The translations under genes were made by a program, and so were the position numbers. From a virus, in the UHGV virus genome UHGV-1569641: a stretch of 11,942 bases of DNA. One strand, written 5' to 3'. The notes under the pieces are model-generated. The model did not search any database, was not told the origin of the DNA, and worked only from the letters and a program-made list of their open reading frames with translations. Shown here in pieces: positions 323-11,942 of the stretch. Each line of letters begins with the position of its first letter. The stretch's first letter is position 1.

Positions 323-1015
323 TTAATTGTGTCGCTTAAGGGTTTGTGACTGGCTGATTAAGACCTTTCCAAAGACCATAAACCGGTGTTCATTTTCGCT
401 GGTAATTCCCCATTCACGGTAAATCTGGTTATCAGAAATCACCAGTAGTTTGTCAGGTATCATTTGCAGTCGTTTGACATAAATTTTATCATCAAAACCA
501 AATACATAGATACCATCTCCATCAAACTGATTGATACTGACATCAACGAAGATGAGATCTCCTGGCTCAATGGTTGGACACATACTGTCCCCACGAACGT
601 TGATAACTTTAATGTGATTGGCTGGCCGTCCGCCAAACATCGATACAGCATTATCAGTTCTGTATTCAATGGCATGAATCACATCAATGACATCACCGCC
701 CTGGATAAGGCCATTTCCCGCACTGGCACTGACATCCAGCATTTCAATACGGAATACATCCTTCACCTGCGCAACATCCTCACTAATACTGTTTTTACAT
801 ACAGTATTACTTTTGACGTCTGAGGTAAAGAGATCAGCAATATCAACACCTAAGCTCCTGGCAATATTACTCAGGGCTTGTTCAGTGAATTGTTTCTGCT
901 TACCTGTTTCCAGGCGTGAGATATTCGCCGCATCCACTCCTATTGCTTCAGCGAGATCGGCGATTTTCATGTTCTTCGCCTGGCGAAGTTGTCTGACTCG
1001 GTTTCCTATGTTCAT
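323..1015 (-). CDS. cI: CI-type phage repressor (N-terminal XRE-family HTH, C-terminal S24 LexA-like autopeptidase domain)
   Basis: 230-aa ORF. N-terminus has an HTH (QAKNMKIADLAEAIGVDAANISRLETGK). C-terminus has a GDSMCPTIEPGDLIFVD Ser motif and a downstream YVKRL Lys, consistent with a Ser-Lys dyad, plus an Ala-Gly candidate cleavage site (SASAGNG). Divergent from cro. No Shine-Dalgarno upstream of the ATG. Confidence 0.9.
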   Translation of the reverse strand: MNIGNRVRQLRQAKNMKIADLAEAIGVDAANISRLETGKQKQFTEQALSNIARSLGVDIADLFTSDVKSNTVCKNSISEDVAQVKDVFRIEMLDVSASAGNGLIQGGDVIDVIHAIEYRTDNAVSMFGGRPANHIKVINVRGDSMCPTIEPGDLIFVDVSINQFDGDGIYVFGFDDKIYVKRLQMIPDKLLVISDNQIYREWGITSENEHRFMVFGKVLISQSQTLKRHN

Positions 1016-3211: not shown

Positions 3212-3700
3212 ATGAGTCTTTTGAATGACGTTCAGAAATTCATTGAAGCCCATCCGGGCTGTACTTCCGGAGACATTGCGGATGCTTTTGCAGGTTACTC
3301 ACGGCAGCGCGTTCTGCAGTCAGCAAGCAAGTTACGTCAGAGTGGGCGTGTGGCTCACCGTTGTGAAGGAGATACACGCAGACATTTCCCGCGCCTGACT
3401 GAGAGAGCGCAGGAGCCGGAACCACAATCTGTTCGTGAAACCAGACCTGTGCGCAATTTCTATGTCGGCACTAACGACCCCCGGGTGATTTTGTGCCTGA
3501 CCCGCCAGGCGGAAGAACTGGAGTCCAGGGGCTTATACCGTCGTGCTGCAACGGTGTGGATGGCGGCATTCCGTGAAAGCCACTCCCAGCCAGAACGAAA
3601 CAATTTTCTGGCGCGTCGTGAACGGTGTTTACGGAAAAGCAGTAAGCGGGCTGCATCAGGTGAAGAGTGGTACCTCTCAGGGAATTACGTGGGGGCTTAA
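3212..3700 (+). CDS. PerC-family-like transcriptional regulator (N-terminal HTH-like region plus C-terminal PerC-like motif)
   Basis: ATG at 3212 preceded by a G-rich RBS; the track start at 3206 is an upstream GTG. C-terminal ELESRGLYRRAATVWMAAF...RRERCLRK resembles the PerC/Pch motif as recalled, not searched. Confidence 0.5.
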   Translation: MSLLNDVQKFIEAHPGCTSGDIADAFAGYSRQRVLQSASKLRQSGRVAHRCEGDTRRHFPRLTERAQEPEPQSVRETRPVRNFYVGTNDPRVILCLTRQAEELESRGLYRRAATVWMAAFRESHSQPERNNFLARRERCLRKSSKRAASGEEWYLSGNYVGA

Positions 3701-4352
3701 TGAGTAATAAATATTGCCAGGCGCTGGTGGAGCTGCGGAACAAACCAGCCCATGAACTGAAGGCAGTGGGCGATCAGTGGCGCACGCCGGACAACATTTT
3801 CTGGGGAATTAACACCCTGTTTGGCCCGTTTGTTCTGGATCTGTTCACTGACGGTGATAACGCCAAATGTGCTGCGTATTACACGGCGGAAGACAACGCG
3901 CTGGCGCATGACTGGTCAGAACGCCTTGCGGAGCTTAAAGGTGCTGCCTTTGGTAATCCCCCATACAGCCGCGCCAGTCAGCATTAGGGGCAATACATCA
4001 CCGGCATGCGTTACATCATGAAGCATGCCAGTGCCATGCGTGATAAAGGCGGGCGCTATGTTTTCCTGATCAAAGCTGCCACCAGCAAGTGTGGTGGCCG
4101 GAAGATGCAGATCATATTGCTTTTATTCGCGGGCGTATTGGTTTTGAACTGCCTGCCTGGTTTATCCCGAAGGATGAGAAGCAGGTGCCGACAGGCGCTT
4201 TCTTCGCTGGTGCTATTGCTGTTTTCGACAAGACCTGGAAGGGACCGGCAATCAGCTACATCGGGCGCGATGAACTTGAGGCATGTGGTGAGGCCTTTCT
4301 GGCGCAGGTTCGCCAGCAGGCAGAAAAACTGGTCAGGGAGATGGCGGCATGA
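3700..4352 (+). pseudogene. Phage Dam-type N6-adenine DNA methyltransferase, disrupted by an in-frame amber codon and a 1-nt frameshift
   Basis: N-terminal part (from ATG 3700) carries the catalytic NPPY motif (FGNPPYS) and ends at TAG 3985-3987. The same frame resumes with MTase-like sequence (KGGRYVFLIKAATSK), then the homologous sequence continues in the -1 frame from about 4089 (WWPEDADHIAFIRGRIGF...) to the stop at 4352, which overlaps the next gene start in ATGA. Confidence 0.6.
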
Positions 4353-4675: not shown

Positions 4676-5061
4676 AGCTGATCCTGCCTTTTCCGCCCAG
4701 CGTGAACACGTACTGGCGACACCCCAACAAAGGGGCGTTTGCTGGTAAGAGCCTGATAAGCGCGGCGGGGCGAAAATTCCAGAGCGCGGCGTGCGCAGCA
4801 ATAGTTGAGCAGTTACGTCGTCTGCCGAAACCAACGTCGGCACCTGCTTCAGTGGAGATCGTGTTGTTTCCTCCGGATAACAGGATCCGCGATCTGGACA
4901 ACTATAACAAGGCGCTGTTTGACGCCCTGACCCACGCGGGGGTGTGGGAAGACGACAGTCAGGTGAAAAGAATGCTGGTGGAGTGGGGACCGGTTATCCC
5001 GGAAGGGAAGGTCGAGATCACTATCAGTAAGTACGAGAAAACGGCGGGTGCAGCTGCCTGA
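4672..5061 (+). CDS. rusA: RusA-family Holliday junction resolvase
   Basis: 129-aa ORF with RusA-like features (PPSVNTYWRH near the N-terminus, DLDNYNKALFDALT acidic motif). Typical position in the lambdoid nin region. Confidence 0.8.
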   Translation: MKLILPFPPSVNTYWRHPNKGAFAGKSLISAAGRKFQSAACAAIVEQLRRLPKPTSAPASVEIVLFPPDNRIRDLDNYNKALFDALTHAGVWEDDSQVKRMLVEWGPVIPEGKVEITISKYEKTAGAAA

Positions 5062-5080
5062 TTAAGAGGAGAAACGAAGT

Positions 5081-5890
5081 ATGAATAATCTGATGGTCAT
5101 TGATGGTATTGAAGTTCGTCGTGATGCTTATGGGCGTTACAGCCTGAACGATCTGCATCGCGCAGCAGTAGCATCTGGTGCAAATGCCAGAACCAAGGAG
5201 CCAGGAAAGTTTCTTTCCAGCCAACAAACTGTTGAGCTTGTTCATGAATTAACCAACACCCAGAATTTGGGTGTTGACCCGGTGAGCGTGATTCATGGGG
5301 GAAATGAACGGGGAACGTATGTCTGTAAGGAACTGGTGTATGCCTATGCAATGTGGATCAGCCCGTCATTCCATCTGAAGGTGATCCGTACTTTCGATAT
5401 GGTAACCAGCGCGCCGGAAAAGTTATCCGGACAGGCTGCTGACAAGATGCAGGCTGGCGTGATTCTGCTGGACTTTATGCGCCGGGAGTTAAATCTGTCT
5501 AACTCATCTGTGCTTGGGGCCTGTCAGAAACTCCAGGAGGCTGTTGGCTTACCGAATCTGGCACCGCGCTATGCCATTGATGCACCTGCTGACGCGCCTG
5601 ATGGCTCAAGCCGCCCCACGCTGTCGCTGAGTGCACTGCTGAAGCAGTATGGTATCCGCCTGACGGCTAATCAGGCATATCACCAGATGGCGAAGCTGGG
5701 GATCGTTGAACAACGCGAACGATACAGCCGTACCGCGATTAACAACATCAAAAAATTCTGGTCGCTGACAGCGAAAGGCTGCATGTTCGGCAAGAACATC
5801 ACCAGTCCCGCAAATCCGCGCGAGACGCAGCCGCATTTCTTCGAATCCCGATTCCCTGAGCTGTTAAAGCTGCTCGATACCGTTCATTGA
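5081..5890 (+). CDS. KilA-N domain protein (Roi / antirepressor-like)
   Basis: 269-aa ORF. The N-terminus (VIDGIEVRRDAYGRYSLNDLHRAA...QQTVELVHEL) matches the KilA-N pattern. Strong RBS AAGAGGAGA upstream. Confidence 0.7.
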   Translation: MNNLMVIDGIEVRRDAYGRYSLNDLHRAAVASGANARTKEPGKFLSSQQTVELVHELTNTQNLGVDPVSVIHGGNERGTYVCKELVYAYAMWISPSFHLKVIRTFDMVTSAPEKLSGQAADKMQAGVILLDFMRRELNLSNSSVLGACQKLQEAVGLPNLAPRYAIDAPADAPDGSSRPTLSLSALLKQYGIRLTANQAYHQMAKLGIVEQRERYSRTAINNIKKFWSLTAKGCMFGKNITSPANPRETQPHFFESRFPELLKLLDTVH

Positions 5891-5891
5891 G

Positions 5892-6887
5892 GTGACCGTG
5901 AGAGCACTACTGACCCCTGAAATTGCCCCGCGTATGGGGATCGTATTGTTCAGGCCAGGTTCAGAGCTGATGCCCCTGTTTATGCAGGGGCGTGTCCTGC
6001 TGGAGCCTGAGCCGGAACGTTATTCATCTTTTGCCAGTGGTGCCGTTCCGGCTGCATCACAACCGCTGGCGGATGATCCTGCCGTTCGGGCCGTGTTCCG
6101 CAATGAGGCAGTGATCCGTCGTGCTGGTGGCGTGGAATGTCTTGAAAGCTGGTTACTTCGTGAAAAAGGCTGCCAGTGGCCTCATTCCGGATGGCACAGC
6201 GAGAACATGACCACAATGCGACACGCTCCGGGTGCAATCCGTCTGTGCTGGCACTGCGATAACCAGTTGCGCGATCAGTTCACGGAACGGCTGGAATCAA
6301 TGGCAACGGATAACTGTGCCCGCTGGGTGTTGTCTGTTGTGCGTCGGGATCTCGGTTTTGATGACAGTCACGTTGTGACAATGCCGGAACTGTGCTGGTG
6401 GCTGATTCGTAATGATCTGGCGGATGCCTTACCGGAAAGTGCAGCCCGTAAGGCACTGAGATTACCGAAGCCTGTTGTGCCGTCTGTCACCCGGGAAAGT
6501 GACCTGGTGCCTTCGGTTCCTGCCACCAGCATCATCCAGGATAAAGCGAAAAAGGTGCTGGCGCTGAAAGTGGATCCGGAGTCGCCGGACTCTTTTATGT
6601 TACGCCCAAAACGTCGCCGCTGGGTTAATGAAAAGTACACGCGATGGGTTAAGACGCAGCCGTGCGCATGTTGTGGAAAACCTGCTGATGATCCCCACCA
6701 CCTGATAGGCCACGGTCAGGGTGGAATGGGGACAAAAGCGCATGACCTCTTTGTGTTGCCTTTGTGCAGAAAGCATCACGACGAGCTGCATGCGGATAAT
6801 GTGGCATTCGAAGAGAAGTATGGCTCCCAGCTGGAGCTGATATTTCGTTTTATCGATCGTGCGCTGACGATTGGTGTGCTGGCCTGA
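5892..6887 (+). CDS. DUF968-like (YdfU-like) phage protein with C-terminal Cys/His-rich putative metal-binding motif
   Basis: 331-aa ORF; start uncertain (GTG 5892 or GTG 5898 after GAGG). C-terminal [22 protein letters not shown]...[10 protein letters not shown]. Sits immediately upstream of Q, as ydfU does relative to quuQ in the Qin prophage (recollection). Confidence 0.55.
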
Positions 6888-7477: not shown

Positions 7478-8560
7478 TTAGAACTGGTAAACCAGACCTA
7501 CAGCAACGATGTCATCAGTATCAATACCAGCTGTTTTGGTAAACTTACTATCGTCAATTAAGTTGATTTTGTAATCAACAAAAGTGGACATGTTTTTATT
7601 AAAGTAGTAAGTAGCACCGACATCGACATACTTGACTAAGTCTCGGTCACCATGAACACCAAGGTCTTTACCTTTTGACTGAAGGTAAGCAACAGATGGG
7701 CGCAGACCGAAGTCAAACTGATATTGTGCTACTGCTTCAAAGTTTTGTGCTTTGTTTGCAATATGGTTATTACCAAAAACGGTCATATTCTGAGTTTCAG
7801 AATATGTGGTAGCCAGATAGATATTGTTCGCATCATATTTCAGGCCTGCAGCCCATACTTCCGCATTTTTGCCGGAGGCATTGAATTTGCTCTTACCATA
7901 GGCGACCTGACCGTCAGTGCGATCTGATTTAGCATAGGTTGCACCCACGCCGAATCCTTCATACTCATAAGTAGTGGAGAAACCGAAACCATCACCATTG
8001 GCTTCAGTTACGTCAGTGCGGTCATTTTTACCCTGATACTGAGCAGCAAAGTTCAGGCCATCGACCAGACCAAAGAAGTCGTTGTTACGATAAGTTGCAA
8101 CACCAGTAGTGCGACCAGTCATGAACACATCTGTTTGGGTCCAGGTATCACCACCGAATTCTGGCAGGACGTCAGTCCACGCACCGATGTCGTATGCTAC
8201 ACCGTAGTTACGGCCGTAATCGATTGAGCCGTAATCACCAAATTTCAGGCCTGCAAATGCAAGACGGGTTTTGTCTTTGGAAGAACCTTGAGATTCAGCG
8301 CGGTTGCCTTTGAATTCATATTCCCACTGACCGAAACCAGTCAGTTGATCGTTGATTTGGGTTTCACCTTTGAAGCCAAGACGGGCATAAGTAGTATCAC
8401 CATCATCTGCATCATTAGAGGAGAAGTAGTGCTTAGCATTAACTTTCCCGTACAGATCCAGCTTGTTACTGTCTTTATTATAAATTTCAGCTGCCTGAGC
8501 AGACATCGCCATCAGTACTGATGCAGCTACAGCAGAAATTGCCACTGTTAATTTTTTCAT
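7478..8560 (-). CDS. nmpC: Outer-membrane general porin, NmpC / Lc / OmpD-type (prophage-encoded, lysogenic-conversion porin)
   Basis: 360-aa ORF with signal peptide ([29 protein letters not shown]), porin motifs ([19 protein letters not shown]) and C-terminal VYQF. Opposite orientation to the flanking phage genes; appears intact. Confidence 0.9.
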
Positions 8561-10301: not shown

Positions 10302-10333
10302 TTTTTTTGCAAATCACAAAGTCCATTTAATGA

Positions 10334-10355
10334 GCCTCGCGATGCGGGGCTTTTT
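10334..10355 (+). terminator. Rho-independent terminator after the lysis cassette (first of two)
   Basis: Stem GCCTCGC / GCGGGGC (one G-U pair), 3-nt loop, followed by TTTTT. Confidence 0.5.
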
Positions 10356-10362
10356 GCAATAA

Positions 10363-10387
10363 ATGCGTACCGCAACGCATGTTTTTT
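10363..10387 (+). terminator. Rho-independent terminator after the lysis cassette (second)
   Basis: ATGCGT-accgca-ACGCAT hairpin followed by G-TTTTTT. Confidence 0.5.
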
Positions 10388-10502
10388 ACACCGAATCTGC
10401 CCCTTTGGAATGGGCCTTTGAGGATACCAGTTAGTGCTGGCGAGCCTCGGTGGGCTGGTTTCCTGTGCGGCAAAGGTTCATTTCAAAGAGTAGGTACACG
10501 CT

Positions 10503-11000
10503 ATGAAATCATTAACCCTCTTCAATTAACCAATTCGTATCGGTGAAGATGGCATGATCTGCCTCACTGATATGTGGAAAGCCAGTGGTAAAAGTGAATC
10601 TGAATCGCCTTACCACTACCTGCGAAACAAGCAGACCAAAGAGTTCTTAGCCGAGCTGGAGAAAAACCACGAATCTGTGGTTTTTACTGAGCGCGGTGTA
10701 CACGGTGGAACATATGGCGGGAAGTTTGTTGCTTACGATTATGCGGCTTGGTTAAACCCCGGGTTCAAGTACGCGGCCTATAAAGTCCTCGATGACTACT
10801 TCACCGGAGAACTTCAGCATCGCAACAGCTTAAGTGCGCAGCTCAACATGAAATGTCATGAGTTTGACCAGAAGAAAGACATGGCGAGCTTCTGCGGACA
10901 AGGGCTGGCAGCATGGCGCTATACGAAGCCAGTGTTGGTCGCTGAGATTAACTCCCTGGCTAACCAGCTGCAGATTACGATCCCCGGGCTTCCGGGATGA
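10503..11000 (+). pseudogene. KilA-N domain protein interrupted by an in-frame TAA near the N-terminus (a truncated product from ATG 10554 is possible)
   Basis: ATG at 10503, eight codons (MKSLTLFN), TAA at 10527-10529, then the same frame continues PIRIGEDGMICLTDMWKASGK...EFLAELEK, a KilA-N-type N-terminus. The first downstream ATG is 10554, which is the track ORF 10554-11000. Confidence 0.5.
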
Positions 11001-11266
11001 GTGATCATGTTATTGAATGCGCCTCCAGAGCGGGGCGCGACTTCTCAGAGTTCATGAAAGGCGAGAAGGGCATGATGGAAGCATTGGCCTCGGTGGACGA
11101 GTTTGGCGAGCAGCTGCGCCTCAACGGCTGTGTCAATCATCACTTTGTTAGCTACATGATGCGGAACTCGATCATGCAGGCATTCATGGACATGGCAAAA
11201 GCCGAGAGGAAAGAAGAGCGCCGGCGTAAGCGAGCGGAAGCAAAAGCAAAAGCAAAAGTGAAGTAG
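10997..11266 (+). CDS. Hypothetical small protein with Lys/Glu/Ala-rich C-terminal tail
   Basis: 89-aa ORF starting in an ATGA overlap with the KilA-N stop. C-terminal AKAERKEERRRKRAEAKAKAKVK. No family recognised. Confidence 0.45.
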   Translation: MSDHVIECASRAGRDFSEFMKGEKGMMEALASVDEFGEQLRLNGCVNHHFVSYMMRNSIMQAFMDMAKAERKEERRRKRAEAKAKAKVK

Positions 11267-11803: not shown

Positions 11804-11942
11804 GGTGATGCTGCCAACTTACTGATTTAGTGTATGATGGTGTTTTTGAGGTGCTCCAGTGGCTTCTGTTTCTATCAGCTGTCCCTCCTGTTCAGCTACT
11901 GACGGGGTGGTGCGTAACGGCAAAAGCACCGCCGGACATCAG
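11804..11942 (+). mobile_element. IS1 insertion sequence, left end (inverted repeat plus start of insA); continues beyond the window
   Basis: GGTGATGCTGCCAACTTACTGATTTAGTGTATGATGGTGTTTTTGAGGTGCTCCAGTGGCTTCTGTTTCTATCAGCTGTCCC... matches the IS1 terminal inverted repeat and 5' region as recalled. Confidence 0.85.
11859..11942 (+). CDS. insA: IS1 InsA (transposition regulator / N-terminal part of the InsAB' transposase), 5' partial, GTG start
   Basis: Translation from GTG 11859 gives (M)[27 protein letters not shown], the InsA N-terminus with its zinc-finger Cys residues. Runs off the window edge. Confidence 0.8.

Follow-up and report, generated by a model that had tools for sequence, protein, structure and literature searches.

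An early nonsense codon in a KilA-N domain gene carried by a shallow clade of lambdoid Escherichia coli prophages

We analyzed a stretch of 11,942 nucleotides from the virus genome UHGV-1569641 (the window), a segment of a lambdoid, DLP12-like Escherichia coli prophage, in which a KilA-N domain gene on the plus strand (10503 to 11000) contains an in-frame TAA directly after its eighth codon. In our judgment, this stop very probably goes back to a true nonsense mutation of one base in an accessory gene of the prophage, most likely leaving a null or strongly weakened allele. The allele differs by one base from intact 165-codon alleles, and it recurs in several independent assemblies.

The premature stop and its ancestral codon

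From the ATG at 10503, the frame continues AAA TCA TTA ACC CTC TTC AAT, giving the eight codons of MKSLTLFN, and then meets TAA at 10527-10529. After the stop, the same frame reads PIRIGEDG, reaches a methionine codon at 10554 followed by ICLTDMWKASGK, and runs up to the TGA at 10998-11000; a program-made list of open reading frames (ORFs) reports the part from 10554 to 11000 as an ORF of 148 codons. The in-frame TAA after codon 8, which a preliminary description of the window had pointed out, can therefore be read directly in the sequence. The parts of the gene are the following.

10503..10529, plus strand: residual 5' end of the KilA-N gene (original start, seven further codons completing MKSLTLFN, premature TAA), from the sequence; equivalent to the annotated start of the intact 165-codon homologues
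10527..10529, plus strand: premature ochre stop, with T at 10527 for the C of CAA (Gln9), from the DNA alignment and a codon-by-codon comparison
10542..10546, plus strand: GGTGA, a Shine-Dalgarno-like (SD-like) sequence 7 nucleotides upstream of ATG 10554, from its pairing to the 3' end of 16S rRNA
10554..11000, plus strand: remaining 148-codon ORF, with KilA-N minus its first ~16 profile positions and a complete ORF11CD3 (residues 92-144, ~10827-10985), from the ORF list and Pfam

The frame is not an accidental one that happens to contain a stop, because it matches the Pfam KilA-N and ORF11CD3 families above their cut-offs and lies one base away from an intact allele. In the DNA alignment, the codon at the position of the TAA is CAA in phage ECP1, in E. 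coli Ecol_448 and in the Stx2 phage 1717, and ACA in phage HK620, so the closest intact orthologues carry a sense codon that is one mutation from a stop. Compared codon by codon over 498 nucleotides, the gene of the window is the same as the alleles of ECP1 and Ecol_448 except for the C to T change at 10527, which bears out the earlier suggestion of a nonsense mutation such as CAA to TAA. Against the 1717 allele, it shows 34 synonymous and 6 non-synonymous codon differences, a ratio which indicates that the gene family is under purifying selection. A deamination hotspot at a Dcm site (CCWGG) was considered as a source of the C to T change and rejected, as no such site lies around 10527 (TTCAATCAACC).

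In the homologues, the sequence before and around the position of the stop codes for protein. All 17 full-length homologues, which come from Escherichia, Salmonella, Cronobacter, Yersinia, Erwinia phage phiEt88, Enterobacter and Endozoicomonas and extend down to 38% identity, open with MKxLTLFNxPxRV..GM; within this segment L6 never varies, and M1 and R12 hardly do. At six of the first 17 codons, HK620 and the window are separated by synonymous changes alone, and most of the differences in this stretch are of this third-position kind. The placement of the stop inside a conserved N-terminal region is thus upheld, since the 17 upstream codons are conserved as protein and change at wobble positions. 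By contrast, the residue at the stop is not the conserved glutamine that had been envisaged: the homologues carry Q, T, E, K or A there.

Gene callers report the 148-residue product, and one could argue from this that the true gene starts at ATG 10554 and that the 51 nucleotides upstream are a conserved non-coding leader. However, the N-terminal extension is present in every full-length homologue (a start at the methionine equivalent to 10554 was found in 0 of the 17), the HK620 and window sequences differ over codons 1-17 in the largely synonymous manner just described, the match of the intact protein to the Pfam KilA-N profile begins at residue 9, and two confident strands are modelled in the segment. 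The homologue alignment speaks against a natural start at 10554 so consistently that we regard the leader as already refuted and hardly credible; the preliminary description had itself named homologues with a natural start there as a finding that would overturn its reading.

Distribution of the TAA allele

The exact 148-residue product is on record on many contigs, publicly annotated as a "KilA-N domain-containing protein". In seven of the ten listed places (L006-L009 and L012-L014, in NCBI/ENA assemblies that include some chromosome-scale contigs), the upstream DNA is identical to that of the window, including the TAA, and an independent contig from a human-gut metagenome (L016) has the TAA as well. 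Over ~7 kb, these copies share 99.75-99.87% identity with the window. Their downstream structures vary: some have a seemingly full set of called late genes, some are deleted next to the chromosomal xdhC gene, and one carries an insertion of the IS3 family of insertion sequences (ISs), whereas the window carries an IS1. Since copies so closely alike share the stop and yet differ downstream, we conclude that the allele arose once and is inherited within a shallow clade.

The same data bear on the other objection foreseen in the preliminary description, a sequencing or assembly error at 10527 in a gene that is intact in the real genome. A one-base difference from a common intact allele is what such an error would look like; yet the identical base stands in seven other assemblies and in the independent metagenome contig, on copies that are distinct in other respects. 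An error is refuted in practice, and we attach almost no probability to it.

The allele is absent from the 336 RefSeq complete E. coli genomes, 20 phage records and one plasmid that contain the 61-nucleotide region, every match there having at least one mismatch. An exact-pattern scan for the allele over one genome per species gave zero matches, which is uninformative because E. coli is a single genome in that set.

We propose that the C to T change at 10527 arose once in the ancestor of a shallow prophage clade and spread with these prophages. Translation from the native start now ends after eight codons. What remains is most likely a null or strongly weakened allele, which probably persists because the prophage can do without the gene and is itself in decay, as its broken Dam-like gene and its IS1 insertion suggest. 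Two observations weigh against this account. First, the ORF is untouched apart from the stop, with no further change relative to the intact allele. This is undiagnostic, since a recent neutral mutation and selection on a truncated product both predict it and the clade is too shallow to separate them: the TAA clade has ~25 variable sites in 6.9 kb, one of which (synonymous) falls within the ORF 10554-11000, and a search for relaxed or continued selection within the clade has no power at that number of sites. Second, L006 and L009 have seemingly complete called late genes, from terminase through portal, in the stretch examined, which means that prophages without visible signs of death carry the allele too.

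The TAA allele is an ordinary lineage-specific nonsense allele, a case of ordinary prophage gene decay that is already in public data as a normal protein of 148 residues. Its significance is small, as it adds only a further point mutation to those seen in accessory genes of prophages. Public annotation lists the remnant as an ordinary "KilA-N domain-containing protein" and not as a truncated allele. In addition, the natural early-stop allele and the intact allele of ECP1, a plaque-forming phage, are one base apart in the gene and form a potential test pair for a widespread gene that follows the lysis cassette.

Domain content and a possible restart at 10554

The intact 165-residue protein is predicted to combine an N-terminal KilA-N domain, APSES-like and putatively DNA-binding, with a C-terminal helical ORF11CD3 domain. 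Pfam places KilA-N at residues 9-101 (profile positions 8-106 of 107, 57.6 bits) and ORF11CD3 at residues 109-161 (50.5 bits). The 148-residue ORF of the window still matches both families, KilA-N (PF04383) with 49.4 bits over profile positions 17-106 of 107 and ORF11CD3 (PF10549) with 50.8 bits over positions 1-54 of 54, the Pfam gathering cut-offs being 23.8 and 25 bits, respectively; it does not contain a complete KilA-N domain with the N-terminal strands. PHROGs assigns the gene to phrog_129, "transcriptional regulator", and both domains are members of the "Bro network", in which phage regulators exchange domains by shuffling (PMC10111431).

An AlphaFold model built on the 17 homologues (predicted local distance difference test score 87.5, confident) has strands at residues 2-6, 9-13, 60-63 and 69-72, helices at 21-28, 36-41, 43-54 and 74-84, and a long C-terminal helix at 86-156, an arrangement that agrees with the alpha+beta fold of APSES-like domains. 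A Foldseek search with this model returned nothing significant, a sequence search of the PDB gave chance-level matches only, and the literature on hkbK and on KilA-N with lambdoid phages or spanins yielded no functional study of this subfamily. The likeness to KilA of phage P1 and to the KilA-N/APSES (Mbp1) fold is at the level of the domain only. P1 KilA has a different C-terminal domain; for the protein described here, DNA binding is a prediction, and killing of the host would be conjecture.

The first in-frame start past the stop is the ATG at 10554, 24 nucleotides downstream of the TAA. Restart at this codon is plausible, because the stop is this close and the GGTGA sequence stands 7 nucleotides upstream; its calculated pairing to the 3' end of 16S rRNA is -7.6 kcal/mol, against -6.5 kcal/mol for the native start. 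The site lies within a predicted hairpin. That E. coli ribosomes can restart past an early nonsense codon is well established, lacI being one example. As in the lacI restart proteins and in T4 rIIB, the stop in the window comes very early, and an SD-like sequence and an in-frame ATG follow a few codons later; the lacI and rIIB products have been shown biochemically, whereas the candidate in the window is a prediction from sequence. Some ribosomes may restart at 10554 and make a protein of 148 residues that lacks the KilA-N beta-hairpin and retains an intact ORF11CD3.

Strands 2-6 and 9-13 both lie upstream of Met18, and Pfam profile positions 8-16 are lost in the restart product. The preliminary description had expected this product to miss its first beta-strand; the loss of N-terminal strand structure stands, while the count needs correcting, as the model shows two strands forming a hairpin. 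Since the hairpin belongs to the APSES-like sheet, the KilA-N domain of the product would probably be destabilized, and the ORF11CD3 helix would stay intact.

It is tempting to speculate that the 148-residue form is functional and retained by selection through this restart, the stop being an adaptive attenuation and not decay; with a partial KilA-N and an intact ORF11CD3, such a form could be a less toxic or dominant-negative KilA-like protein. The in-frame ATG just past the stop with its SD-like sequence at the ideal spacing, and the precedent for restarts in E. coli, are in keeping with this idea. So is the lack of secondary lesions in the ORF of all nine allele-carrying sequences (0/9), and in the lineages L010 (~4736-5994), L011 (~5961) and L015 (~5998), independent IS insertions that fall in codons 4-16 of the gene have each left the same 148-residue ORF. 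However, the SD-like match is undistinctive, being equalled by 17% of the plus-strand ATGs in the window. The clade, at about 0.15-0.25% divergence, is too shallow for the absence of lesions to mean anything. The three IS lineages are not evidence of targeting or enrichment, because they are a selected sample, found through their exact 148-residue product. Moreover, the lost segment comprises two core strands of the fold, and all 20 phage records with the region keep the full-length gene. On balance, we consider a selected truncation unlikely.

A broader version would hold that the KilA-N/ORF11CD3 gene is harmful to lysogens, that its 5' end is a recurrent target of inactivation or attenuation (the TAA and the three IS lineages), and that a hairpin-less restart product is kept for the continuing benefit of its ORF11CD3 half or of the coupled downstream gene. 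We find this rather improbable. The insertion in L010 is a simple IS3 insertion at codon 15/16, with duplication of the sequence equivalent to 10547-10550.

The chance that the TAA is read through, by an ochre suppressor tRNA or by leaky termination, so that full-length protein is still made, seems to us negligible. No support for it was found, although the window was not scanned for tRNA genes, which might include a phage-borne suppressor. The base after the stop is C, but of the E. coli stop codons UAA leaks least; the sequence around the stop shows no evident recoding signal, and ochre suppressors are rare among natural isolates.

Gene neighborhood and the surrounding prophage

BLAST searches of complete E. 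coli genomes and phage records show that hundreds of prophages carry this gene, as do isolated phages. In ECP1, HK620 (hkbK), 1717 and Ecol_448, it is annotated as a 498-nucleotide, 165-codon "KilA-N domain-containing protein" with a start equivalent to 10503, and it stands directly after the holin-lysozyme-Rz cassette and before a small ORF that overlaps its stop. Across the lambdoid and P22-like phages, HK620 hkbK, ECP1 gp19, gp49 of the Stx2 phage 1717 and 'kilA' of phage 2851 are the same gene as that of the window, with the same position and domain pair. The hkbK orthologues share 93-99.8% nucleotide identity with the window gene and likewise lie after Rz and before the small ATGA-overlapping ORF; they are intact at 165 codons, whereas the window allele has TAA at codon 9. 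The immediate neighbors of the gene in the window are as follows.

10302..10502, plus strand: intergenic stretch from Rz to the KilA-N gene, containing terminator-like hairpins, from a sequence scan
10997..11266, plus strand: downstream ORF of 89 codons, phrog_875 (PHROGs), whose ATG overlaps the KilA-N stop as ATGA, from the ORF list

Within 10302-10502, a consensus scan found no sigma-70-like promoter, and no LexA-box-like site, as would suit an SOS-controlled gene of the antirepressor type, was found there. Because the gene has no promoter match of its own and lies after and co-oriented with holin, lysozyme and Rz/Rz1, it is most likely expressed from the late transcript antiterminated by Q. 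An ORF in the +2 frame (10379-10546, 55 residues) was judged spurious; it spans the terminator-like hairpins.

The ~115 nucleotides upstream of the gene together with its first three codons (10389-10513) recur at 94-97% identity ahead of genes for Rha-family regulators in other E. coli prophages. The similarity appears to mark a mosaic exchange junction at the KilA-N start codon, behind the lysis cassette, where alternative Bro-network genes would be swapped.

Downstream, the 4-nucleotide ATGA overlap is common to ECP1, HK620, 1717 and Ecol_448, and the SD match of the 89-codon ORF itself is weak (-4.1 kcal/mol). This ORF is probably translationally coupled to the KilA-N gene, and its translation would fall with that of the KilA-N frame; restart at 10554 would in turn keep some of it. 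An AAAGCA repeat at 11238-11255 encodes the AKAKAK tail of the 89-residue product. L013 is without one 6-nucleotide AAAGCA unit, leaving a product of 87 residues, so the repeat length varies by in-frame slippage.

Other features of the window place the gene in its prophage. Beyond those given below, the window encodes a DUF968 protein and antiterminator Q, and then, after the porin, holin, lysozyme and Rz with an embedded Rz1.

323-1015, minus strand: cI-type repressor
3700-4352: Dam-like N6-adenine methyltransferase gene, disrupted by a frameshift as well as by an in-frame stop that follows ~95 codons
5081-5890: second, unrelated KilA-N gene (269 residues, 79 bits, Pfam), between RusA and DUF968 in the early/nin region
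7478-8560, minus strand: OmpC/NmpC-type porin between antiterminator Q and holin, as in DLP12
11806..11942, plus strand: left end of an IS1 (inverted repeat GGTGATGCTGCCAACTTACTGAT, presumably the IS1 terminal repeat, then the InsA N-terminus from a GTG), downstream of the KilA-N operon and running off the end of the window

Like DLP12 of E. coli K-12 with its pseudogenes, this lambdoid prophage has a porin placed between Q and the lysis genes, and it has taken up ISs and has accessory genes that are broken; unlike the defective DLP12, some prophages with the TAA allele appear to have full sets of called late genes in the stretch examined. The ETEC6 prophage is near-identical to the window. 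The Dam-like genes of the two differ at 1 of 653 bases, and RefSeq calls the ETEC6 copy a frameshifted pseudogene. The ETEC6 segment aligned to 11806-11942 is annotated as IS1B transposase, and the alignment runs through the junction, which suggests that the two prophages share the same IS1 insertion; among the prophages with the TAA allele, only that of the window has it. Finally, six window-specific substitutions fall within 78 nucleotides of the DUF968 gene (6190-6267), the rest of the 7 kb being nearly identical to its relatives, and this cluster looks like a short recombination patch.
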